Made by a program: the position numbers and the translations under genes. Source: a virus (taxonomy: Duplodnaviria; Heunggongvirae; Uroviricota; Caudoviricetes). Taken from it: a stretch of 10,992 nt of DNA. Shown here in pieces: positions 1 through 10,992 of the stretch. The stretch spans positions 1 through 10,992 of the IMG/VR virus record IMGVR_UViG_2684622669_000002. One strand, 5' to 3'. The notes beneath the pieces were generated by a model that saw nothing but the letters and a program-made list of their open reading frames with translations, was not told the DNA's origin and made no database searches. Positions within the stretch are counted from its first letter, which is position 1. Every line of letters starts with the position of its first letter.

Positions 1-12
1 CCGCAGATGGTT
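1..12. promoter_or_regulatory. Partial OL3-like cI operator, truncated by the window edge
   Basis: Window starts 'ccgcagatggtt', which matches the right-hand part of the lambda-type 17-bp operator TATCACCGCAGATGGTT as I recall it. Position left of the cI operon is as expected for OL. Confidence 0.45.
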
Positions 13-155
13 ATCTGTATGTTTTTTATATGAATTTATTTTTTGCAGGGGTGCATTGTTTGGTAGGTGAGAGATCTGAATTGCTATGTTTAGTGAGTTG
101 TATCTATTAATTTTCAAATAAATACAATTGGTTATGTGTTTTTTTGGGGGGGTTA

Positions 156-186
156 GGCAAAGAAAACCCGGCACTGAGGCCGGGTT
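156..186 (-). terminator. Rho-independent terminator ending the cI-cassette operon (tImm-like)
   Basis: On the minus strand, an 8-bp perfect stem (AACCCGGC / GCCGGGTT, + coords 165-172 and 179-186) with a 6-nt loop is followed by TTTTCTTTG. It begins 6 nt after the stop of the 192..563 ORF. Confidence 0.7.
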
Positions 187-191
187 GTGTG

Positions 192-563
192 TTACTTAAG
201 AACGAGTCCGTTTAAGGCATCAAGGATTTTGGAAACATAACTTCCAAAAATGTAGGCGCAAAATGCGAACACGAAACTGACAACGACCGCAGATGCCTTA
301 ATGGTGGTTTTTGCTGAGCTAATGCTTGTCTCAATACCTGACAGACGAGAATCAACAGATTTTATATCTGACTTTACCTCAGCGAGATCGCGCTTGATGT
401 ATTCAACATCAGACTCTAGCTTTGCAACTCTAGCCTCAAGCATGTTACCTCCGCCGTTTCCTCCACCATGCCGTGAGTATGCATCATCAGTGGAATAGTG
501 TCCAATTGGGCGAGATATGTTTTGATTTGGACGAAGCTGAGCAACCTTGTTATCTAAACTCAT
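192..563 (-). CDS. Hypothetical 123-aa tail-anchored coiled-coil membrane protein; distal gene of the rexAB-slot cassette, candidate membrane effector
   Basis: ORF with ATG at 563-561 and an AGGA about 10 nt upstream. Translation shows a polar N-terminus, a Gly-rich linker (GGGNGGGN), a heptad-like segment (LEARVAKLESDVEYIKRDLAEVKSDIKSVDSRL) and one C-terminal hydrophobic helix (AVVVSFVFAFCAYIFGSYV). No family recognised. Confidence 0.6.
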   Translation of the reverse strand: MSLDNKVAQLRPNQNISRPIGHYSTDDAYSRHGGGNGGGNMLEARVAKLESDVEYIKRDLAEVKSDIKSVDSRLSGIETSISSAKTTIKASAVVVSFVFAFCAYIFGSYVSKILDALNGLVLK

Positions 564-987
564 CGCGAACTGATCCTGTTATCTTCACGTCAAAAAACGA
601 ACTTTTTACATCAATTACTTCGCCTTTCTCAGGATTAACCAGTGATGCTCTAACTTCGAATATCCCAGGCTTGATAATTTTCACCCTTGGGAAGTTAATT
701 CTCATAGAAGTTGATACGATGGTTTCTCCATCGTTGGCTTCTGCTACCGTAAAAAACTTATGGTTGGAGTACAGTTTTGTGTCAATTGGTATCGGTATTT
801 CTTGAGCATTGAAAACCTCAATGCCTATGGAATATTTTTTTGTAGCCTTAAGGCAGATAAAAAAAGCGCCAAATGACAGATCCACTTCATGGGAGTCTTT
901 ATCCATTTCATAGATAAGAACTGGAGTTACGTGGTTGCCTTCATCCATCGCAATTGGAATGATATAAGAAATACGTTCTTTAATCAT
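550..987 (-). CDS. Hypothetical 145-aa protein; proximal gene of the rexAB-slot cassette
   Basis: ORF begins 7 nt after the cI stop codon and overlaps the next ORF by 14 nt. No hydrophobic helix and no catalytic motif I recognise. Alternating hydrophobic pattern suggests a beta-rich fold. Confidence 0.6.
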   Translation of the reverse strand: MIKERISYIIPIAMDEGNHVTPVLIYEMDKDSHEVDLSFGAFFICLKATKKYSIGIEVFNAQEIPIPIDTKLYSNHKFFTVAEANDGETIVSTSMRINFPRVKIIKPGIFEVRASLVNPEKGEVIDVKSSFFDVKITGSVRDEFR

Positions 988-994
988 TTACGTG

Positions 995-1711
<717 letters not shown>

Positions 1712-1718
1712 TTAAATC

Positions 1719-1784
1719 TATCACCGCAAGGGATAAACTTCTAACACCGTGCGTGTTGACTATTTTACCTCTAGCGGTGATAAT
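1719..1784. promoter_or_regulatory. OR3-OR2-OR1 operator cluster with divergent PRM/PR promoters
   Basis: OR3 tatcaccgcaagggata (1719-1735), OR2 taacaccgtgcgtgttg (1742-1758), OR1 tacctctagcggtgata (1766-1782). PR -35 ttgact (1756-1761) and -10 gataat (1779-1784) with 17-nt spacing. cro RBS aggagg at 1799-1804. Confidence 0.85.
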
Positions 1785-1808
1785 GATTGCCTGTACTAAG
1801 GAGGTTGT

Positions 1809-2009
1809 ATGGAACAACGCATAACCCTGAAAGATTATGCAATACGCTTTGGCCAAACCAAGACGGCTAAAGATCTCGGCGTATATCAAAGCGCGATTAA
1901 CAAGGCCATTCATGCAGGCCGAAAGATTTTTTTAACTATAAACGCTGATGGAAGCGTTTATGCGGAAGAAATAAAGCCCTTCCCAAGTAACAAAAAAACA
2001 ACTGCATAA
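1809..2009 (+). CDS. cro: Cro repressor
   Basis: 66-aa translation [64 protein letters not shown] matches lambda Cro apart from a couple of conservative substitutions. Strong RBS; sits immediately right of OR1/PR. Confidence 0.95.
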
Positions 2010-2016
2010 GTAACAC

Positions 2017-2062
2017 CGCTCTTTTCACAATGGACATTCGTCCTACGTCGCTGACAAAGCGA
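2017..2062 (+). promoter_or_regulatory. nutR-like N-utilisation site: boxA plus boxB hairpin
   Basis: boxA-like cgctctttt at 2017-2025, just after the cro stop. Perfect 5-bp stem with pentaloop at 2048-2062 (TCGCT-GACAA-AGCGA). The loop differs from lambda boxB (GAAAA) and resembles the P22-type loop as I recall it. Confidence 0.5.
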
Positions 2063-2146
2063 GCCCCAAGATATCTGACCAACTAAGGCCATATGCGTTT
2101 CAACGCATACCTTTCAACTAACTATTCACTATTGGAAAATTAACAA

Positions 2147-2446
2147 ATGACACAAGCAAGTTACAGCAAGCCAACACAGCGAGAAATTGATCGCGCAGAA
2201 ACAGATTTACTCATCAACCTGTCAACGCTTACCCAGCGCGGTCTGGCAAAGATGATTGGCTGTCATGAATCGAAGATAAGCAGAACGGACTGGAGATTTA
2301 TTGCTTCGGTCTTGTGTGCTTTTGGAATGGCATCAGACATCAGTCCGATTAGCAGGGCTTTTAAGTATGCGCTTGATGGACTCACCAATAAAAAACGCCC
2401 GGTGTGCAAGACCGAGCGTTCTGAACAAATACAAATGGAATTTTAA
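2147..2446 (+). CDS. cII: CII-like transcriptional activator
   Basis: 99-aa protein with a central HTH-like segment (QRGLAKMIGCHESKISR). C-terminus (LTNKKRP…TERSEQIQMEF) is almost identical to the lambda CII C-terminal region; N-terminal half differs. Position after cro/nutR fits. Confidence 0.8.
   Translation: MTQASYSKPTQREIDRAETDLLINLSTLTQRGLAKMIGCHESKISRTDWRFIASVLCAFGMASDISPISRAFKYALDGLTNKKRPVCKTERSEQIQMEF
2388..2418 (-). terminator. oop-like antisense terminator inside the 3' end of the cII-like gene
   Basis: On the minus strand, a 7-bp stem with one G-U pair (CGCUCGG…CCGGGCG), 9-nt loop, then UUUUUU. Same location and orientation as the lambda oop RNA terminator within cII. Confidence 0.45.
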
Positions 2447-2468
2447 TAACATCCAACGAGGTAATTAT

Positions 2469-2741
2469 ATGCGAAACAAAGGCTTTAATCCACCTGATAC
2501 ACACAAAGAAGCTAAGCGTTTGCGCTTCCTTCGTTCCATTGATGAAAGAACTCAAATCTCTTTTGTGAAAGTTGCCAGAACTGAGCTTCTGAAGGCTGAG
2601 GCGAGGGAGTTGCTCCCATCTCTACCAAAAGAGGAGGAATATACGTTCATTCCAAACGCATTTCTGGAAAAGCTGCTCAAAGAAGACATATCCGTAAGTC
2701 AGTTTAACGATGTTCTTAAGGTCTTTCGTCAAGGCAGGTAG
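2469..2741 (+). CDS. Hypothetical 90-aa protein between cII and the initiator gene
   Basis: ATG at 2469 is preceded by GAGG at 2458-2461 with 7-nt spacing. The track ORF 2301..2741 is the same frame extended upstream into cII and is unlikely to be the true start. Charged, probably helical protein; no family recognised. Confidence 0.5.
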   Translation: MRNKGFNPPDTHKEAKRLRFLRSIDERTQISFVKVARTELLKAEARELLPSLPKEEEYTFIPNAFLEKLLKEDISVSQFNDVLKVFRQGR

Positions 2742-2743
2742 TT

Positions 2744-3691
2744 ATGAGCAATACAGCAAAAATCTACGATTTCAGCGCCGCACACGAGCGCAGGAGCAAC
2801 AGGATGGAGAACCAGAAAACTGGTTACATTCCGTTGTACCGGAGCATTCTGAAACAGTCATGGGCGAAAGATGTTTATCTTCGCACCCTGTGGGAAAACC
2901 TTCTCCTGAATGCCGCCAGAAAGCCATACAAAGCGAATTTCAAAGGTCATGAATGGCATCTGCAACCCGGTCAACTGGTTGTGACAGCAGCTGATTTAGG
3001 TCTTCAGTTATGCGACAGGCATGGCAAGCCAGCAAGCCGCGATCAGGTTGAGCGGATGCTTCAGGTTTTTGTGAAAGAGGGGATGATCTCCATTGATGGA
3101 GAGAAGAAAAAAGGTCGTGTGATCACCATCACAAATTACCATGAATACGCTCAAAAAATGGACAATTTACCCGCACATGAAGCCGCACAAACAACCGCAC
3201 ATGATGCCGCACATGACGAAGCCAGTAACGGCGCGGCTTTCGGGGTACATGCCGCACATGAAAGCGCACATGAAGCCGCACAAACAACCGCACATCATGA
3301 ACAAGAAGGTATTAACAAGAATATAAATAATACCCCCCTACCCCCCAATGGGGGAGGCGATGGGCAGGTTAAACCTGAACGTCGCAAGGCAGAACGAATC
3401 GACTACGAATCCTTCCTGAACGCCTACAACACCGAAGTCGGTGACAGACTGCCACACGCTGTTGCGGTCAACGAGAAACGCAAACGCCGCCTGAAGAAAA
3501 TCATCCCGCAACTGAAAACGCCAAACGTGGACGGTTTCAGAGCGTATGTCAGGGCGTTTGTACATCAGGCCAAGCCGTTTTACTTCGGAGACAACGATAC
3601 TGGCTGGACGGCCGATTTTGATTACCTGCTGAGAGAAGATTCGTTAACGGGAGTTCGTGAAGGGAAGTTTGCAGACAGGGGGATTGCATGA
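2744..3691 (+). CDS. Replication initiator, O-like (N-terminal iteron-binding domain, repetitive linker, C-terminal domain)
   Basis: N-terminus [10 protein letters not shown]… resembles lambda O (MTNTAKILNF…). Iteron repeats lie inside the coding sequence, as in lambdoid O genes. Followed by a helicase gene with ATGA start/stop overlap. Confidence 0.85.
3169..3300. repeat. Origin iterons: about 8 copies of a CCGCACA(T/A)GA-type unit in two clusters, followed by an AT-rich segment
   Basis: Direct repeats visible at about 3170, 3182, 3195, 3206, 3250, 3263, 3275 and 3288. Followed by AT-rich 3301-3332 and a CCCCC-AAT-GGGGG hairpin at 3342-3354. Layout matches a lambdoid ori within the O gene. 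Confidence 0.7.
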
Positions 3692-5064
3692 AACAGGATA
3701 TCGAAGCGAGCGTTATCGGTGGCCTGCTGATTGGTGGATTAACACCAACTGCCAGTGACGTTCTGGCAACGCTGGAGCCGGAAGCGTTTTCAATTCCGCT
3801 CTACCGGAAAGCCTTCGAGGTTATCCGGAAGCAGGCGAGAAACAGAAACCTAATCGACGCGCTGATGGTTGCCGAGGCGTGCGGAGAGGAGCATTTCACG
3901 TCAATCCTGATGACCAGCAAAAACTGCCCGAGTGCCGCAAACCTGAAGGGATATGCCGGAATGGTCGCGGATAACTATCACCGCCGTCTGGTGCTGGAAA
4001 TCATGGATGAAATGCGTGAACCAATTCAGAGCGGAACCATCGACGCATCGAGTCAGGCGATGGACGAGCTTGTAAAGCGTCTTTCAGCCATCAGAAAGCC
4101 CCGTGACGAGGTTAAACCTGTACGGTTAGGGGAAATCATCACTGACTACACTGACACGCTTGACAGGCGTCTGAGGAACGGAGAAGAGTCAGATACCCTG
4201 AAGACCGGAATCGAAGAACTTGACGCCATCACCGGAGGGATGAACGCGGAAGACCTGGTGATTATCGCCGCTCGTCCTGGTATGGGGAAAACCGAACTGG
4301 CGCTGAAGATTGCCGAAGGCGTTGCAAGTCGTGTTATTCCTGGTTCTGACGTCCGGCGCGGGGTATTGATTTTCTCAATGGAAATGAGCGCATTGCAGAT
4401 TGCAGAGCGAAGCATTGCCAACGCCGGGAGGATGTCGGTTAGCGTACTGCGAAATCCTGCATCGATGGATGACGAGGGCTGGGCACGTGTTGCTAACGGC
4501 ATGAGTCAGCTTGCAGATTTGGATGTATGGGTAGTCGATGCTTCTCGGTTATCGGTCGAAGAAATACGCTCAATCGCAGAACGGCATAAGCAGGAAAATC
4601 CAAACCTGTCACTCATCATGGCGGATTATCTTGGCCTGATTGAGAAGCCGAAAGCAGACCGCAACGACCTCGCAATTGCTCACATCTCCGGAAGCCTGAA
4701 GGCGATGGCGAAAGACCTGAAAACGCCAGTTATCTCCCTGAGTCAGCTTTCGCGCGATGTTGAGAAGCGACCAAACAAACGCCCGACAAACGCAGATTTG
4801 CGTGATTCAGGAAGCATTGAGCAGGACGCAGACTCAATCATCATGCTCTATCGGGAAGCGGTATATGACGAGAACGGTAGCGCCGCGCCATTTGCTGAAA
4901 TCATCGTGACGAAAAACCGTTTTGGCTCGCTTGGTACGGTTTACCAGCGGTTCTGTAACGGACACTTTGTTGCATGTGACCAGGATGAAGCAAGACAGAT
5001 TTGCACAGCATCAAATGCACCTGCTGCGCGTGGCAGACGATATGCACAAGGGGCTGACGTATGA
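3688..5064 (+). CDS. DnaB-family replicative helicase (phage-encoded, P22 gp12-like)
   Basis: 458 aa. Walker A ARPGMGKT, DnaB-like motifs ([17 protein letters not shown]), N-terminal DnaB-type domain. Start overlaps the stop of the O-like gene. Confidence 0.9.
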
Positions 5065-5136
5065 CCATCTACATAACTGAGCTAATAACAGGCCTGCTGG
5101 TAATCGCAGGCCTTTTTATTTGGGGGAGAGGGAAGT

Positions 5137-5463
5137 GTGGCTGACTGGCAAATTCCAATCATCATTCTTGCCGGAGCTTCGCTGGTTGCTGGCTTTATCC
5201 TGCTGAAAAAGCATAAAGACCGTGATCAAAAAGTCGAAGTTCTATATGGGTATCCAGCGAACTGCACAACATGGCTGACCATTTACCACTACCGAAAATC
5301 AGGCCGCTGGGTATTCGAATGGGATGATCTGTTCGCTGAAAAGCGACCAAAGTCATGGGGAGACATCAGCGAATGCATGATGTTTGAAGAAAGAAAATCC
5401 GGCGCAACTCGAGAAGAGTTTAACGAAGCGTGGAGGCGATTAAGTGAGAGAGGGTATCAATGA
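5137..5463 (+). CDS. Hypothetical 108-aa protein with an N-terminal transmembrane helix (ren-position gene)
   Basis: GTG start at 5137 preceded by GGGGGAGAGGG. N-terminal hydrophobic helix IPIIILAGASLVAGFILL. Stop overlaps the start of the next ORF (ATGA). Confidence 0.45.
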   Translation: MADWQIPIIILAGASLVAGFILLKKHKDRDQKVEVLYGYPANCTTWLTIYHYRKSGRWVFEWDDLFAEKRPKSWGDISECMMFEERKSGATREEFNEAWRRLSERGYQ

Positions 5464-5696
5464 GCAGAATTAAATCTGGTTATCCAGGGAATGGGGAATA
5501 CCCGAAGCCATATTTACCTGTAACAGTGACCACTCAATCTAAGCATCCACATCATTTCAAGCATAGTGGTACAGCTTATTGGAGTGGAAAGCGGTGGATA
5601 GGTATTGATGGGTTCAAAATTGGGTATGCAAAGGTAATTAAATGGGAATTTAACATCGCACACTGGAGTTCATCCCATGAGGAAACTAACGTTTGA
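5460..5696 (+). CDS. Hypothetical 78-aa protein
   Basis: ORF translationally coupled to the preceding ORF (ATGA overlap); its 3' end overlaps the ninB start by 20 nt. No family recognised. Confidence 0.45.
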   Translation: MSRIKSGYPGNGEYPKPYLPVTVTTQSKHPHHFKHSGTAYWSGKRWIGIDGFKIGYAKVIKWEFNIAHWSSSHEETNV

Positions 5697-6117
5697 ACTA
5701 AGAAGCCCCATCCATCAGCAGAACGCCATTCAAGCCATCCAGCAAATCCTTCCAGACCCAACCAAACCAATCGTAGTAACCATTCAGGAGCGCAACCGCA
5801 GCTTAGACCAGAATCGAAAGCTTTGGGCTTGCCTTGGTGACGTCTCGCGTCAGGTTGAATGGCATGGTCGATGGCTGGATGCAGAAAGCTGGAAGTGTGT
5901 GTTTACCGCAGCATTAAAGCAGCAGGACGTTGTTCCTAACCTTGCCGGGAATGGCTTTGTGGTAATAGGCCAGTCAACCAGCAGGATGCGTGTAAGCGAA
6001 TTTGCGGAGCTATTAGAGCTTATACAGGCATTCGGTACAGAGCGTGGCGTTAAGTGGTCAGACGAAGCGAGACTGGCTCTGGAGTGGAAAGCGAGATGGG
6101 GAGATCGGGCTGCATGA
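5677..6117 (+). CDS. ninB: NinB recombination protein (Orf-family, ssDNA-binding)
   Basis: 146-aa translation is near-identical to lambda NinB as I recall it (…LTFE.RSP.HQQNAI…LPDPTKPIVVTIQERNRSLDQNRKLWACLGDVSRQVEWHGRWLDAESWKCVFTAALKQQDVVPNLAGNGFVVIGQSTSRMRV…). Confidence 0.9.
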   Translation: MRKLTFELRSPIHQQNAIQAIQQILPDPTKPIVVTIQERNRSLDQNRKLWACLGDVSRQVEWHGRWLDAESWKCVFTAALKQQDVVPNLAGNGFVVIGQSTSRMRVSEFAELLELIQAFGTERGVKWSDEARLALEWKARWGDRAA

Positions 6118-6641
6118 CTATCAAATCAAATACGCCAGCACACGACAAGGACTGCTGGCAAACGCCGCTCTGGCTTTTTGATGCGCTGGATATTGAGTTT
6201 GGGTTCTGGTTGGATTCGGCAGCGAGCGACAAAAATGCTCTGTGCGCTCACTGGTTAACTGAGGCCGACGACGCGCTAAATTCTGAGTGGGTAAGCCACG
6301 GTGCAATCTGGAATAACCCACCGTACAGCAATATCAGGCCGTGGGTGGAAAAAGCCGCTGAGCAGTGCATACAACAGCGACAGACGGTAGTTATGCTTGT
6401 GCCAGAGGATATGTCAGTCGGATGGTTCAGCAAGGCTCTGGAGAGTGTCGACGAAGTTCGCATTATCACTGATGGACGGATTAATTTTATCGAACCATCG
6501 ACGGGGCTGGAGAAGAAGGGAAACAGCAAAGGCTCCATGCTGCTGATTTGGCGACCGTTCATCAGTCCTCGACGGATGTTTACTACCGTATCCAAAGCGG
6601 CATTGATGGCGATCGGGCAGGGCGTCAGGAGGGCTGCATGA
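6114..6641 (+). CDS. Phage DNA N6-adenine methyltransferase (phage Dam family)
   Basis: Start ATG at 6114 overlaps the ninB stop. NPPY catalytic motif ([10 protein letters not shown]). Size and position are typical of nin-region phage Dam proteins. The track ORF from 6054 is an upstream in-frame extension. Confidence 0.85.
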
Positions 6642-6814
6642 GACGACAGCGACGAAGCATCACCGACATCATCTGTGAAAACTGCAAATACCTTCCAACG
6701 AAACGCTCCAGAAATAAACGCAAGCCAATCCCAAAAGAATCTGACGTAAAAACCTTCAACTACACGGCTCACCTGTGGGATATCCGGTGGCTAAGACATC
6801 GTGCGAGGAAATGA
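6638..6814 (+). CDS. ninE: NinE
   Basis: 58-aa product [55 protein letters not shown] matches lambda NinE as recalled. Start overlaps the Dam stop (ATGA). Confidence 0.8.
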
Positions 6815-6816
6815 CA

Positions 6817-7176
6817 ATGGATTATTCACAGTTAAGTGATTTTGAAATTAACGTGGCGGTATTCGAAGCCATTCATAACGGATCACCGGATTACAAAGAA
6901 GGTGAGAATGGCGATATGGTGTTTGTCTCATTTGAGGGAGACATTGTAAACGGAGACGCAGTTGAAGTAGAAGTTGAGCGCGGATCCTTTAACCCATGCG
7001 CAAACCCAGCAGACGCATGGCCGATTATTGAAAAATACAGGATTAGCATTATCAATCTCGATGAAGACGAGTGGGGTGCACGCGGTGTGGCCTACTGTAA
7101 ATCTAAGCGAGCTATACATGAAAATCCCCTCCGCGCCGCCATGATTGTCTTTCTCATGATGCAGAGAATCCAATAA
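6817..7176 (+). CDS. Hypothetical acidic nin-region protein (about 120 aa)
   Basis: ATG at 6817 preceded by GAGG at 6805-6808; ATG 6811 is an alternative start. Acidic N-terminal half. Ends TAATG, overlapping the ninF start. Confidence 0.55.
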   Translation: MDYSQLSDFEINVAVFEAIHNGSPDYKEGENGDMVFVSFEGDIVNGDAVEVEVERGSFNPCANPADAWPIIEKYRISIINLDEDEWGARGVAYCKSKRAIHENPLRAAMIVFLMMQRIQ

Positions 7177-7352
7177 TGCTTAGCCCATCCCAATCCCTTC
7201 AATACCAGAAAGAAAGCGTCGAGCGAGCTTTAACGTGCGCTAACTGCGGTCAGAAGCTGCATGTGCTGGAAGTTCACGTGTGTGAGCACTGCTGCGCAGA
7301 ACTGATGAGCGATCCGAATAGCTCAATGTACGAGGAAGAAGACGATGAATGA
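7176..7352 (+). CDS. ninF: NinF
   Basis: Not in the supplied ORF track (below size cutoff). Hand translation gives MLSPSQSLQYQKESVERALTCANCGQKLHVLEVHVCEHCCAELMSDPNSSMYEEEDDE, which matches lambda NinF as recalled, with Cys-rich motifs. Confidence 0.7.
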   Translation: MLSPSQSLQYQKESVERALTCANCGQKLHVLEVHVCEHCCAELMSDPNSSMYEEEDDE

Positions 7353-8070
7353 GTTAATAAATGGCAATGCCATCAAAATGACAAGCATTGAAATCGCTGA
7401 GTTGGTAGAAAGCCGCCATAGCAATGTAAAAGTATCCATAGATAGATTGGTGAAACGTGGCGTTATCAAGCCTCCTGCATTGCAGCACACTAACATAATC
7501 AATGATTTAGGTGTTATTACCGGGAAGCGTGATTTCTACGTCTTCGAGGGCGAACAAGGTAAGCGAGACAGCATTATTGTCGTCGCTCAGTTGTCGCCGG
7601 AATTCACCGCTCGTCTTGTTGACCGTTGGCGAGAGCTTGAAGAAGCTGCAGTTAATATCCCCAAAACGTTACCGGAAGCGTTGCGCCTTGCTGCTGATCT
7701 TGCTGAGCAGAAAATGCAACTGGAAAACCAGCTCGCAATTGCCGCACCTAAAGTTGAGTTTGCCGATCGAGTTGGCGAGGCCAGCGGAATTTTGATTGGA
7801 AACTATGCAAAGGTTGTTGGTATTGGTCCAAACAAACTGTTTGCATGGATGCGCGATCACAAAATCCTTATTGCTTCAGGTTCCCGGCGCAATGTGCCAA
7901 TGCAGGAATATATGGATCGCGGCTATTTCACAGTGAAAGAAACAGCGGTCAACACAAATCACGGAATACAGATATCGTTTACCACAAAAATCACCGGGCG
8001 CGGTCAACAGTGGCTGACCAGAAAGTTGCTCGATAACGGAATGCTGAAAGTAACAGGGGAGGCTGCTTAA
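7345..8070 (+). CDS. Phage antirepressor, KilAC (ANT) domain protein
   Basis: 241 aa. C-terminal segment (NYAKVVGIGPNKLFAWMRDHKILIASGSRRNVPMQEYMDRGYF) has the ANT/KilA-C pattern. N-terminal domain is of the AntA/Rha-like type. RBS GAGGAAG upstream. Confidence 0.8.
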   Translation: MNELINGNAIKMTSIEIAELVESRHSNVKVSIDRLVKRGVIKPPALQHTNIINDLGVITGKRDFYVFEGEQGKRDSIIVVAQLSPEFTARLVDRWRELEEAAVNIPKTLPEALRLAADLAEQKMQLENQLAIAAPKVEFADRVGEASGILIGNYAKVVGIGPNKLFAWMRDHKILIASGSRRNVPMQEYMDRGYFTVKETAVNTNHGIQISFTTKITGRGQQWLTRKLLDNGMLKVTGEAA

Positions 8071-8360
8071 TGGCTAACCTACGCAAAGAAGCACGCGGCA
8101 GAGAATGCCAGGTACGTATTTACGGCGTATGCAATGGCAATCCTGAAACTACAGTTCTGGCACATTACCGGATGGCTGGAATTTGCGGAACGGGAATGAA
8201 GCCTGACGACCTGATCGGTGCATGGGCTTGTAGTGCGTGTCACGATGAAATCGACCGACGCACCCATAATCTCGACAACAAAGACGCCAGACTTTACCAC
8301 CTCGAAGGCGTGATCAGAACGCAGGCGATACTGCTGAAGGAGGGGAAGATTAAGCCATGA
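8070..8360 (+). CDS. ybcO: YbcO-like protein (DUF1364, Cys/His-rich putative nuclease)
   Basis: 96-aa protein with CxxxxxC … CxxC-H motif. Resembles DLP12 prophage YbcO as recalled. Sits before rusA as in DLP12-type nin regions. Confidence 0.7.
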   Translation: MANLRKEARGRECQVRIYGVCNGNPETTVLAHYRMAGICGTGMKPDDLIGAWACSACHDEIDRRTHNLDNKDARLYHLEGVIRTQAILLKEGKIKP

Positions 8361-8881
8361 ACGGTAAAAGATATCCAACACAAAAAGAAATCAATGAATT
8401 GTATGAATATAATAGCGAAACAGGTTTGTTTATATACAAGAGAAGAGAAAGTGTAAGAGAGTGCTGGAATTCAACATATGCCGGTAAGATTGCTGGTTCT
8501 ATAGATGAAAAAGGATACGTTCGTATATCTGTAAATAAAAAAGTTTGTCGAGCTCATAGAATCGCATGGATATCCTTTTATGGAAGTGAACCTGATGGGG
8601 AAATTGACCACATAAATGGAATTAAAAGCGATAACAGAATATGCAATTTGCGCGTTGTAGATGATAAACAGAACTCAAGGAACAGAAAAAAGCCTATTAA
8701 TAATCGCTCTGGAGTAATTGGTGTTGCCTACTATAAGAAGAATAAAAAGTGGGGCGCATATATAAACAGTGATAATAAAAAGATATTTCTTGGATTATAC
8801 GATGACATATCTCTAGCCGTTAATGCCAGAAAATTGGCGGAATCACGATTGGGCTATCACCATAATCATGGGAGAGGATAA
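8357..8881 (+). CDS. HNH endonuclease with AP2-type DNA-binding domain (homing-endonuclease-like)
   Basis: HNH_3-type motif (EIDHINGIKSDNRICNLRVV) followed by an AP2-like segment (SGVIGVAYYKKNKKWGAYI). Codon usage is visibly AT-rich compared with flanking genes. Confidence 0.8.
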   Translation: MNGKRYPTQKEINELYEYNSETGLFIYKRRESVRECWNSTYAGKIAGSIDEKGYVRISVNKKVCRAHRIAWISFYGSEPDGEIDHINGIKSDNRICNLRVVDDKQNSRNRKKPINNRSGVIGVAYYKKNKKWGAYINSDNKKIFLGLYDDISLAVNARKLAESRLGYHHNHGRG

Positions 8882-9244
8882 ATGGCAGAATACAGATTCA
8901 CACTTCCGTACCCACCGTCGCTGAACACCTACTGGCGAAGACGGGGAAGCCAATACTACATCAGCGATAAAGGCCAGAAATACCGAAAAGACGTTCAGCA
9001 AATCATCCGCCAACTTAAGTTAGACATTTTCACCAAATCACGACTCCGCATCAAAGTCATCGCAGACGTTCCAGACTCCCGCCGCCGCGACCTCGACAAC
9101 ATCCTGAAAGGTTTACTCGACTCCCTTATCCACGCCGGATTTGCGGAAGACGACGAGCAATTCGATGACATTCGCGTAATTCGTGGCGTGAAAGTACCAG
9201 GCGGAAGGCTTGGAATAAAAATCACCGAACTGGAGAACGCATGA
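8882..9244 (+). CDS. rusA: RusA Holliday junction resolvase
   Basis: 120 aa with the conserved RusA pattern (…DVPDSRRRDLDNILKGLLDSL…GGRLGIKITE…), comparable to E. coli RusA. Confidence 0.9.
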   Translation: MAEYRFTLPYPPSLNTYWRRRGSQYYISDKGQKYRKDVQQIIRQLKLDIFTKSRLRIKVIADVPDSRRRDLDNILKGLLDSLIHAGFAEDDEQFDDIRVIRGVKVPGGRLGIKITELENA

Positions 9245-9429
9245 ACGCCACAATTCAAACGATACCAGAGCTTCTTATCCAGACACGAGGCAATCAGACC
9301 GAAGTGGCGAGGATGCTTTCCTGCGCAAGAGGAACAGTGCTCAAGTACAACCGAGACAGCAAAGGCGAGCGTCATGTAATAGTTAACGGCGTCCTGATGG
9401 TCAAACAGGGCAAGAGGGGAAGACGATGA
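9241..9429 (+). CDS. ninH: NinH-like small DNA-binding protein
   Basis: 62 aa. IPELLIQTRGNQTEVARMLSCARGTVLKY matches lambda NinH (IPDMLVEAYGNQTEVARRLKCSRGTVRKY as recalled). Confidence 0.75.
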   Translation: MNATIQTIPELLIQTRGNQTEVARMLSCARGTVLKYNRDSKGERHVIVNGVLMVKQGKRGRR

Positions 9430-9914
9430 GCATAAGAGAACTAAACCTCACCAAAGAACAGCACGATTGGCTGAATGGCTGGCTTGAACTGTGGGGCGCA
9501 TGGGTTTATTCAGGCCGCCTGGAAAAGCGCATGAGCAGCGTAATAGCGAAGTTCATGGAGAGCGTAGAGCCGGGAAGAGTTATGACAAGGCCAATGTGTA
9601 ATGATGATGATGGAATGTTGATTTCTCAGGTCGTCGATTCCGTCATGTACATTGACAAGAAAGCCTTTGGCATCCTCCTCAGCTACTACGCTCATGGATC
9701 TTCCAAGCATGCCATTGCATCTTACTATCATCGTGTCGCAAGACCTCGCAAGATGTTATGCCGGGGCGGCGGGCGCATTCAAAAACCATCGCTCGCAACC
9801 TGTCGACGGGAAGTTGACGAAATCCTTAATGCCTCGTTGTTTATGATTTACCCGGTTCTTGATAGTGCGTTTAAAAACCGGAAACGTGTAGAGAAAATTA
9901 AACATGTAGCATAG
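9426..9914 (+). CDS. Late-gene antiterminator Q-like protein (probably phage-21-type)
   Basis: Last gene of the nin operon, immediately upstream of a TTGACA promoter element and the lysis genes, and adjacent to a phage-21-type S/R cassette. Call rests on position and size; sequence not independently matched. Confidence 0.6.
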   Translation: MSIRELNLTKEQHDWLNGWLELWGAWVYSGRLEKRMSSVIAKFMESVEPGRVMTRPMCNDDDGMLISQVVDSVMYIDKKAFGILLSYYAHGSSKHAIASYYHRVARPRKMLCRGGGRIQKPSLATCRREVDEILNASLFMIYPVLDSAFKNRKRVEKIKHVA

Positions 9915-9920
9915 AACGTG

Positions 9921-9952
9921 TTGACATCATTGAGCAAATGAGCAACACTATT
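9921..9952 (+). promoter_or_regulatory. Candidate late promoter PR'
   Basis: Consensus -35 TTGACA at 9921-9926, 7 nt after the Q stop. A-T-rich candidate -10 (cactat/actatt) 19-20 nt downstream, so spacing is not ideal. Called mainly on position. Confidence 0.35.
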
Positions 9953-9963
9953 GGCATAAGCTG

Positions 9964-10004
9964 CCGTTAGTGACTCTTAAGTTGCAACGGTGGATTTTTT
10001 TATT
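9964..10004 (+). terminator. Terminator-like stem-loop plus T-tract shortly downstream of the candidate PR'
   Basis: CCGTT (9964-9968) pairs with AACGG (9986-9990) and can extend inward with a bulge; TTTTTTTATTT follows at 9995-10005. Could be a short-leader tR' or a pause/processing structure. Confidence 0.35.
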
Positions 10005-10005
10005 T

Positions 10006-10080
10006 GGGTCAGTCGTATAAAGGTCATTACGGAAGGCTGTTAACCTTCTTATCGTGGTTCGAGTCCACGCTGTCCCGCCA
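10006..10080 (+). tRNA. tRNA-like gene, anticodon GTT (Asn), CCA encoded
   Basis: Hand-folded cloverleaf. Acceptor gggtcag/ctgtccc with one T-T mismatch. Anticodon stem gaagg/ccttc with loop ctGTTaa. T-arm cgtgg-ttcgagt-ccacg. 3' gCCA. D-stem is only 3 bp. Confidence 0.5.
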
Positions 10081-10085
10081 AACAT

Positions 10086-10161
10086 GCTGGTTTAGCTCCA
10101 ATGGTAGAGCAGTCGCCTTGTAAGCGAATGGGTAGCGGTTCAAGTCCGTTAACCAGAACCA
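10086..10161 (+). tRNA. tRNA-like gene, anticodon TGT (Thr), CCA encoded
   Basis: Hand-folded cloverleaf. D-arm gctc-caatggta-gagc. Anticodon loop ctTGTaa. T-arm agcgg-ttcaagt-ccgtt. Acceptor gctggtt/aaccaga with a mismatch at the first pair. 3' aCCA. Confidence 0.55.
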
Positions 10162-10168
10162 TAACTGA

Positions 10169-10229
10169 GCCGTAGCCACTGGCTATCCTGAATTCATCAG
10201 TGATAGTTACGCTGCGGCCTTCTTTTTTC
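10169..10229 (+). terminator. Structured region with T-tract downstream of the tRNAs (candidate tR')
   Basis: Imperfect long hairpin (gccgtagc … gctgcggc with internal ctatc/gatag pairing) followed by ccttcttttttcc. Lies about 300 nt downstream of the candidate PR' and before the holin RBS. Confidence 0.35.
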
Positions 10230-10279
10230 CCCTTCCCAATATAAGAACTACGCAATCCGTTACTGGCGGAGGCGTTGCT

Positions 10280-10495
10280 ATGAAATCAATGGACAAAATC
10301 TCAACTGGCATTGCCTACGGAACATCTGCTGGTAGTGCGGGATACTGGTTTTTGCAGTGGTTGGATCAGGTCAGTCCGTCACAGTGGGCTGCGATTGGAG
10401 TGCTTGGAAGCCTTGTCTTGGGTTTTCTCACTTATCTGACAAATCTTTATTTCAAGATTAAAGAAGATAAGCGTAAGGCTGCGAGAGGTGAATAA
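10280..10495 (+). CDS. S: Phage-21-type pinholin S (dual-start MKSM motif)
   Basis: 71-aa translation [60 protein letters not shown]…KAARGE matches S21 as recalled. Two TM segments. GGAGG RBS 8 nt upstream. Confidence 0.95.
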
Positions 10496-10992
10496 TGTCG
10501 CCGTCATTACGCAAGGCTGTTGCAGCTGCTATTGGTGGTGGGGCTGTTGCCATAGCGTCTGTGCTCATCACTGGTCCAGGTGGTAACGATGGTCTGGAAG
10601 GTGTCAGCTACATACCATACAAAGATATCGTTGGCGTATGGACTGTATGTCACGGGCACACCGGAAAAGACATTATGCCCGGTAAAACGTATACCGAAGC
10701 AGAATGCAAAGCCCTCCTGAATAAAGACCTTGCCACGGTCGCCAGACAAATTAACCCGTACATCAAAGTCGATATACCGGAAACAACGCGCGGCGCTCTT
10801 TACTCGTTCGTTTACAACGTGGGCGCTGGTAATTTCAGAACATCGACGCTTCTTCGCAAAATAAACCAGGGTGATATCAAAGGCGCATGTGACCAGCTAC
10901 GTCGCTGGACATACGCTGGCGGTAAGCAATGGAAAGGGCTGATGACCCGTCGTGAGATTGAGCGTGAAGTCTGTTTGTGGGGGCAACAATGA
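10495..10992 (+). CDS. R: SAR endolysin R (phage-21-type lysozyme with N-terminal signal-anchor-release domain)
   Basis: 165 aa. N-terminal Gly/Ala-rich weakly hydrophobic SAR segment ([23 protein letters not shown]), then a T4-lysozyme-like catalytic domain. Start overlaps the holin stop (TAATG). Confidence 0.95.

Follow-up and report, generated by a model that had tools for sequence, protein, structure and literature searches.

A two-gene cassette fills the rexAB position behind a lambda-type cI repressor and is very probably expressed with it

The DNA stretch studied here, hereafter the window (positions 1 to 10,992 of IMG/VR record IMGVR_UViG_2684622669_000002, comprising 10,992 nucleotides [nt]), comes from a lambdoid phage or prophage of lambda immunity and makes up its early region. 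Our subject is a pair of small genes, orfA and orfB, that lie between its repressor gene cI and a terminator of the tImm type, all on the minus strand. The cI gene (995..1708) encodes a repressor of 237 amino acids (aa) with HTH_3 and Peptidase_S24 domains (Pfam) and ∼97% nucleotide identity to lambda cI. It ends in GGA-TAA (stop at 997..995), after which a 7-nt spacer, CACGTAA (988..994), leads to the orfA ATG at 987..985; a homologous 7-nt spacer, TATGCAA, is found in two related loci, L045 and L046. The orfA gene (550..987) encodes a 145-aa predicted soluble all-beta sandwich, and its stop overlaps the start of orfB (192..563; stop at 194..192), whose 123-aa product is supported by the open reading frame (ORF) list, an AlphaFold2 (AF2) model, and a PHROG match. 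The overlap spans 14 nt (550..563).

An earlier, sequence-only reading of this DNA had placed the ATG of the 145-aa ORF 7 nt beyond the cI stop and had given the two cassette ORFs a 14-nt overlap; both distances hold. It had also credited the 145-aa ORF with no strong Shine-Dalgarno (SD) sequence, and the SD:anti-SD duplex calculated for orfA, whose SD is GGA only, indeed reached just −3.1 kcal/mol. The corresponding energies were −4.1 kcal/mol for orfB, −12.6 kcal/mol for cro, and about −9 kcal/mol for the replication genes. The 7-nt spacer itself is too short to hold a strong SD, let alone a promoter or terminator. The GC content of the cassette (38 to 44%) does not stand out from that of cI, so there is no compositional "moron" signal.

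Beyond orfB lies the tImm-type intrinsic terminator (156..186, minus strand). Its stem-loop (186..165) reads AACCCGGC-CTCAGT-GCCGGGTT, followed by TTCTTTGCC, and comprises 8 pairs, 6 of them G-C, with a T-rich tail. The stem energy is −14.3 kcal/mol (z = −2.97 against shuffles), and the hairpin differs from lambda tImm by one loop base. The homologous element is annotated Timm in GenBank EF120455, EF120457, and EF120459 (Degnan phages) as "terminator of transcripts initiated at pRM, pRE, and pLit." That the orfB stop lies close before a tImm-like hairpin had been noted correctly, but the distance of 6 nt given for it did not stand: 5 nt (CACAC) intervene, or 7 nt if measured to the G+C core. 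Nearly all other cassette loci keep CCCGGCC-loop-GCCGGG-TTTT, at 0 to 5 nt from the orfB stop. In the group of Salmonella phage epsilon34 (L033, L043, and relatives), the tImm-like hairpin after orfB is degenerate and has no T-run (CCCTGACACCGAGCTGGGGTTCACTGCC).

Nucleotide alignment to lambda (NC_001416), which the sequence-only reading had proposed as a check, located the breakpoints. Window positions 1-186 align with lambda 35640-35826 at 93% identity (a block holding OL3, the region right of OL3, and the tImm hairpin), positions 999-2023 align with lambda from 37231 onwards at 97% (cI, OR, and cro), and no match to lambda was found between the two blocks. With homology limited to these blocks, lambda does not have the same junction; rexA and rexB are thus absent, and orfA-orfB sit exactly in their place. 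We also compared six phages with lambda immunity (the window, lambda, HK544, CL707, HK244, and HK97) on the coding strand around the cI stop and the terminator. All six are identical through the second base of the last cI glycine codon and then part, reading GGA-TAA in the window, GGC-TGA in lambda and HK544, GGG-TGA in CL707 and HK244, and GGT-TAA in HK97. Their sequences come together again in the descending hairpin arm (GCCGGGTTTTCTTTGCCT) and share the T-run, whereas the ascending arm and the loop differ. The first cassette gene begins 7 nt past the cI stop in the window, 50 nt in HK244, 86 nt in CL707, 112 nt in lambda, 122 nt in HK544, and 425 nt in HK97, and this tight cI junction is the one unusual feature of the window cassette. 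In its boundaries, the cassette agrees with the slot of Degnan et al. 2007, which runs from the last codon of a lambda-type cI to the tImm hairpin and is bordered by lambda-like sequence at either end. Judged by this comparison, the slot has two fixed punctuation marks, and the window cassette is one more filler. The difference between GGA-TAA here and GGC-TGA in lambda, as given in the sequence-only reading, was borne out, and the lambda alignment and the six-phage comparison both support the proposal of a precise in-slot replacement for rexAB. A mosaic joint at or inside the end of cI had been proposed as well, and the phage-specific wobble base and stop agree with it, the cI tips travelling with the cassette. 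The slot and its co-transcription logic have already been published; according to PMC8585504, it was Degnan et al. 2007 who recognized the cI-N interval as a hotspot of mosaicism. Our literature search found no systematic screen of the cI-tImm slot.

The operator region (1719..1782, strand not assigned) holds OR3 at 1719-1735, OR2 at 1742-1758, and OR1 at 1766-1782, together with PRM and PR. OR3 is exact, OR1 has two mismatches to the search pattern, the position of OR2 was taken from the alignment to lambda and the lambda annotation, and PR was recovered at 1756-1784 by a promoter scan. OR1 reads TACCTCTAGCGGTGATA, in which an A replaces a G of lambda. Between OR3 and OR2, the spacer is AACTTC (AATATC in lambda), which turns the PRM −35 hexamer into TAGAAG (TAGATA in lambda); the PRM −10 is conserved. 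OR and PRM are lambda-like, and we infer that this region is the source of the lysogenic transcript. A TTGC-N6-TTGC repeat at 2156..2169 (minus strand), a putative cII site of the PRE type that faces cI, lies 10-23 nt into a cII-like gene (2147-2446), the place at which lambda PRE has its cII site. Since such a repeat is expected by chance ∼0.9 times per window, its placement is what counts.

A scan for sigma-70-like promoters found no minus-strand site between cI and the orfB start; its only site on that strand (504..476) lies 60-87 nt inside orfB. Run on lambda, the same scan recovered PL and PR as well as a pLIT-like site shortly before rexB, within the 3′ end of rexA, where pLIT is expected. 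A pLIT-like internal promoter, which the sequence-only reading had suggested looking for, was thus not found upstream of orfB by a scan that detects one in lambda. PRM was missed in both the window and lambda, which means that the scan is blind to weak, activated promoters. Neither the sequence nor the signal scan revealed a terminator between cI and orfA. Promoter-like matches on the plus strand inside orfA (809-838) were at chance level and were dropped.

RNA polymerase starting from PRM in the lysogen, or from cII-dependent PRE during establishment, would transcribe cI, then orfA, then orfB, and stop at tImm. Given this arrangement, we regard co-expression of orfA-orfB with cI, as proposed in the sequence-only reading, as very likely. 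The pair might instead have its own promoter or be transcribed only during lytic growth, with its closeness to cI a by-product of recombination, and it is true that weak promoters of the PRM type escape a consensus scan, so that an unconventional promoter inside cI may have been missed. However, the 7-nt gap, the lack of a terminator between cI and orfA in our scan, and a place conserved behind repressors of three different families (see below) all argue against this explanation, and PL, where leftward lytic transcription begins, is located beyond the terminator and faces away from the cassette; we consider this explanation very improbable.

With orfA starting 7 nt past the cI stop behind a GGA SD, and with the orfB start 14 nt inside orfA, the genes of the operon are probably translated in a coupled manner, which would keep the cI:orfA:orfB ratio low and constant. 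A point against this reading is that the SD of lambda rexA is equally weak (−3.1 kcal/mol) without coupling to cI, from which it lies 112 nt away. SD weakness alone is therefore no evidence of coupling, and the relevant feature is the 7-nt distance. The cassettes of HK97 (gp49/gp48), HK544, HK244, and CL707 have identical boundaries to the window cassette and retain tImm, but they consist of unrelated genes, and their larger gaps (50-425 nt) and better SDs (−5.4 to −7.4 kcal/mol) imply a less tight tie to cI translation.

To assess how widely this arrangement occurs, we gathered relatives of orfA from 53 IMG/VR loci, plus epsilon34, enteropathogenic Escherichia coli (EPEC) E2348/69, and one Dryocola genome, and counted linkage over these 56 loci. 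In every one of them orfB follows orfA and both ORFs are intact, with orfA identity as low as 33%, and the overlap is 14 nt in 53 of the 56. The upstream gene encodes either a helix-turn-helix (HTH) plus S24 repressor, of at least 13 sequence-distinct types (clusters below 85% identity, several of which have a lambda-like C-terminal domain in common), or a protein with an HTH domain only. Repressor-to-orfA gaps were 7-72 nt in all loci except L055 (244-250 nt). Ten upstream representatives submitted to Pfam gave eight S24 repressors, one HTH-only protein, and one 131-aa ORF from Dryocola. This extra membrane ORF, at 3576-3971 in Dryocola sp. BD626 (L004), lies between the S24 repressor (2868-3551) and orfA, and it has an N-terminal hydrophobic segment and no Pfam match. 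Among GTDB species representatives, the only orfA locus was that of Dryocola. The cassette is rare: of 5,426 complete E. coli genomes, 16 carry it, whereas a lambda-like cI region occurs in 1,262 E. coli genomes. In EPEC E2348/69 it lies at NC_011601 2620339-2621134, and E. coli HB37 and 980-2 have a stretch nearly identical to the window.

Relatives of orfB, encoded in 157 IMG/VR stretches, extend the linkage. Of 79 orfB-like loci analyzed, 58 have an HTH or HTH+S24-type gene upstream and 12 a Mnt-type repressor, in the same orientation, with nothing but the partner gene between it and the orfB-like gene. HTH/S24 genes were recognized with a profile made from the repressors that precede orfA, and it counts against this linkage that the profile includes the HTH domain, so that some short hits may be other HTH proteins; the Mnt assignment was confirmed by Pfam in Salmonella phage UPF_BP1 (NC_047875, L139; 2296-3268, minus strand). 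There, an Arc+Repressor_Mnt protein is followed by a 94-aa protein and a 149-aa orfB-like protein, divergent from arc-ant. The UPF_BP1 Mnt protein is the immI maintenance repressor. Since the place is kept behind cI-type, HTH-only, and Mnt repressors, all of them made in the lysogen, dependence on the repressor promoter is the best explanation. By this comparison, the pair is widespread, modular, and repressor-linked.

The repressor ends themselves record how the cassette has moved. The cI 3′ tip (..CCAGTGGCCTGAAGAGACGTTTGGA-TAA; 995..1022, minus strand) covers the divergence point of the six phages and travels with the cassette, and the same 25-nt tip is present in L022. There, the repressor gene codes for an unrelated S24 protein (C-terminus ...RVFWSSHSW) and stops at TAA, after which the DNA continues as CCAGTGGCCTGAAGAGACGTTTGGATAACACGTAA-ATG: 25 nt from the very end of a lambda-type cI, the stop of that cI, the 7-nt spacer, and orfA. 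The Salmonella P22-like loci L034, L056, L031, and L044 have four other unrelated repressors, each with an epsilon34-type repressor-end fossil (CAGTGGCCTGATGAGATATTYGGGTGA) behind it and, after that, a second, older fossil (GGATGTTTGGGTGATATACAA-ATG), whose homologue in L045 and L046 is a live junction (GAGATGTTTGGGTGATATGCAA-ATG). The nested fossils lie ∼64 nt upstream of orfA, with ..WPDEIFG-stop first and the older ..MFG-stop next. We read them as a record of successive recombination events. The translation-initiation region of orfA would lie within the cI tip, so that the tip would have to travel with the cassette, and this may be why the joint is where it is. In epsilon34 and its group, the repressor stop shares bases with an in-frame ATG (TGATG), a classical stop-start overlap that gives the annotated form of 156-157 aa.

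A comparable trace is found in lambda itself. Directly 3′ of the cI stop, lambda 37192-37226 (L001 1853-1887) holds 35 nt that read GKVFWSAHS followed by two stops on the coding strand and match the repressor 3′ ends of VT1-Sakai, phiSTEC801-Stx1a, and mEpX1 at 97-100%; HK544 has the fossil too. A fossil repressor tip next to the lambda cI stop suggests that rexAB was once attached to a different repressor. By these comparisons, the cassette moves between phages by recombination at two points, the repressor 3′ tip and the tImm hairpin.

The orfA protein matches PHROG 5893, which carries a function-less annotation, in a full-length profile match (1-140 of 140; 8.8e-64). A word-indexed search placed its relatives in 20 clusters in Enterobacterales, and an exhaustive profile search with the orfA alignment gave 19 hits, the long ones being repeat adhesin-like proteins and uninformative. 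The AF2 model (predicted local distance difference test score [pLDDT] 86.6) is an all-beta sandwich of eight strands, and the sole Pfam match at E ≤ 1 was a sub-threshold one to DotH. Compared with the Salmonella and Dryocola orthologues, the ratio of nonsynonymous to synonymous substitution rates (dN/dS) was 0.10-0.17, with dS near-saturated; judged by this ratio, orfA is under purifying selection. The rarity of the cassette among complete E. coli genomes and the degenerate terminator behind the epsilon34-group copies would fit ORFs that are decaying, functionless passengers. That explanation is hard to reconcile with the low dN/dS near saturation of dS, with two undamaged ORFs in each of the 56 loci, even at 33% identity, and with the confident AF2 model, and we give it almost no credence.

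The orfB protein matches PHROG 6136 in a full-length profile match (1-120 of 120; 2.9e-46) and falls with relatives in 76 clusters, many of them named "hemolysin XhlA" by NCBI. It consists of a disordered head (1-40; LRPNQNISR...DDAYSRH), a GGGNGGG linker, a coiled coil, and a C-terminal transmembrane (TM) segment; AF2 gave residues 1-28 a pLDDT below 50 and modeled one helix (41-122), the last third of which is hydrophobic, and the C-terminal hydrophobic segment is conserved. The head, LRPNQ[DN][IV]SR...DDAYS.H, is kept wherever orfA is the partner, even at 33% orfA identity, and the coiled-coil and TM tail comes in at least five unrelated sequence types. The co-variation of head and orfA was not relied on as a sign of interaction, since adjacency on the DNA explains it equally well. 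In Enterobacter phage ENT1 (PV358077, L058; 2527-3972, minus strand), a 232-aa repressor is followed by a 127-aa protein and a 109-aa orfB-like protein. The latter has the window tail type behind a different head, and the 127-aa partner has two CxxC pairs and a weak zinc-ribbon match. Across Pfam, NCBIfam, PHROGs, and PADLOC, the two proteins gave only PHROGs of unassigned role and sub-threshold coiled-coil or XhlA hits. The literature search returned no paper with the protein accessions of the pair, none on its function, and none linking XhlA-like proteins to defense.

Among known systems, lambda rexA-rexB is the positional counterpart: it has the same slot and orientation between cI and tImm, the same flanking cI tip and hairpin, and two genes encoding a soluble protein and then a membrane protein, with a weak SD on the first. 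However, there is no sequence relation, and the gap to cI is 7 nt here compared to 112 nt in lambda. RexB is a multi-pass membrane protein, whereas orfB is a predicted coiled coil with a single C-terminal TM helix. RexAB excludes T4 rII and other phages by depolarizing the membrane. Genes 45/44 of epsilon34, by comparison, are orthologues (72% identity for orfA and 61% for the orfB head; PHROG 5893/6136), with the same 14-nt overlap and a place directly downstream of the prophage repressor gp46. They differ in the DNA-binding domain of the repressor, the orfB tail type (103 aa), the upstream in-frame ATG, and the degenerate terminator. Genes 44 and 45 were placed in the repressor operon "like rexA and rexB" in 2008 (PMC2629481).

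Two further systems show what may be encoded next to a repressor. BstA of Salmonella prophage BTP1, encoded downstream of cI and presumably served by the cI promoter, is highly expressed in lysogens and is a proven abortive-infection protein (PMC8585504). BstA fills the same slot behind a lambda-type cI in some E. coli genomes, but it is one large protein, which has a KilA-N-type domain and whose self-immunity element is DNA-based, and it has no homology to orfA or orfB. For 434 Hex, PMC3564112 describes an ORF that abuts or overlaps the repressor gene, is translated from PRM mRNA, and prevents RecA-mediated repressor cleavage. Hex therefore offers a precedent for an abutting ORF on PRM mRNA, but it is a single protein, unrelated in sequence. 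XhlA, a membrane protein of the Bacillus PBSX lysis cassette, resembles orfB in having a TM helix at the C-terminus, preceded by a short coiled coil; orfB differs in lying in the immunity region, in its extra disordered head and glycine linker, and in a score below threshold.

What the pair may do can be pictured as follows. Through its C-terminal helix, orfB would be fixed to the inner membrane, exposing the coiled coil and flexible head to the cytoplasm, where the head would bind orfA. orfA would serve as a soluble beta-sandwich binding module, the variable partner that senses or binds a phage component, and orfB would then act at the membrane, either by RexAB-like depolarization and abortive infection or by blocking DNA entry. 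Position, sensor/effector-like modularity, and a slot that also holds the proven abortive-infection systems RexAB and BstA make a lysogen-expressed defense or exclusion role of orfA-orfB, by analogy, a serious candidate that falls a little short of an even chance. Superinfection exclusion, as expected in the sequence-only reading, is a proposal drawn from position. Taken as a whole, the explanation that fits best is that orfA-orfB are the distal genes of the cI operon, defense or exclusion role included, and we hold it to be somewhat probable.

The pair might instead act on the prophage's own life cycle, tuning the lysis-lysogeny switch or induction, or serve as an XhlA-type lysis accessory. 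RexA, according to bioRxiv 10.1101/2021.04.19.439022 and PMC11077077, biases the lambda switch to the lytic state, Hex is a precedent (PMC3564112), and orfB does resemble, below threshold, a lysis-cassette family. Yet neither protein has a DNA-binding or RecA-related domain, the genes lie in the immunity region rather than beside the holin and endolysin genes, and swappable partner and tail modules look more like arms-race diversification than a housekeeping regulator. The holin-like and endolysin-like ORFs occupy window positions 10280-10992. We regard such a role as unlikely. Less likely still is a toxin-antitoxin-like addiction module that stabilizes the prophage, with orfB as membrane toxin and orfA as antidote. 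Two small overlapping genes, the soluble product first and the membrane protein second, and strict linkage in 56 of 56 loci would suit it, but orfA lacks the DNA-binding domain usual in type II antitoxins, the scan found no own promoter to autoregulate, and many toxin-antitoxin-like pairs are abortive-infection systems, so that this explanation overlaps the model of a defense cassette.

Several observations weigh against the reading of orfA-orfB as a defense cassette in the cI operon. The altered PRM −35 region may bear on PRM strength and hence on cassette expression, and the case for that expression is drawn from the layout of the locus only. The orfA fold is, by structure comparison, a generic beta-sandwich. 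In Pfam, neither protein matched RexA or RexB at E ≤ 1; in PADLOC-DB v2, orfA matched no model and orfB gave only weak coiled-coil matches (E ≥ 0.0046). The likeness of orfB to XhlA (PF10779) scores 21.6 bits, below the gathering threshold of 34.7, and the co-variation of orfB head and orfA could simply reflect their adjacency on the DNA.

Beyond the pair itself, and considerably more tentatively, the loci may represent a modular family, so far undescribed, of anti-phage systems that are expressed in the lysogen, act at the membrane, and are wired to the repressor, and in which an orfB-like tail-anchored effector is combined with interchangeable sensors. Such a family would comprise at least five tails and, as sensors, orfA, the zinc-ribbon protein, and a 90-aa protein, joined by a partner-specific head; its repressor would be of the cI/LexA type, HTH-only, or Mnt, and it would spread via recombination at the repressor 3′ tip and at tImm.

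Elsewhere in the window, genes for tRNA-Asn(GTT) and tRNA-Thr(TGT) lie at 10006-10161 on the plus strand, between an ORF at 9426-9914 and the holin-like ORF at 10280. The ORF at 9426-9914 occupies the position of the antiterminator Q gene and is a putative Q by position alone. In the nin-like region, a 174-aa ORF (8357-8881, plus strand) has, by eye only, the look of an HNH/AP2-type homing endonuclease (..HRIAWISFYG..IDHINGIKSDNRICNLRVV..).

The junction logic at this locus is textbook lambda biology, a new filler of a known hotspot behind lambda cI, and by itself adds little. The useful result is the comparative picture, that is, repressor linkage over three unrelated families, fossil tips, and sensor/effector-like modularity. 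The fossil tips offer a concrete molecular account of cassette exchange in the cI-tImm slot, and the pair is a cheap, well-defined candidate for a new prophage defense system, with strains at hand in EPEC E2348/69 and phage epsilon34.

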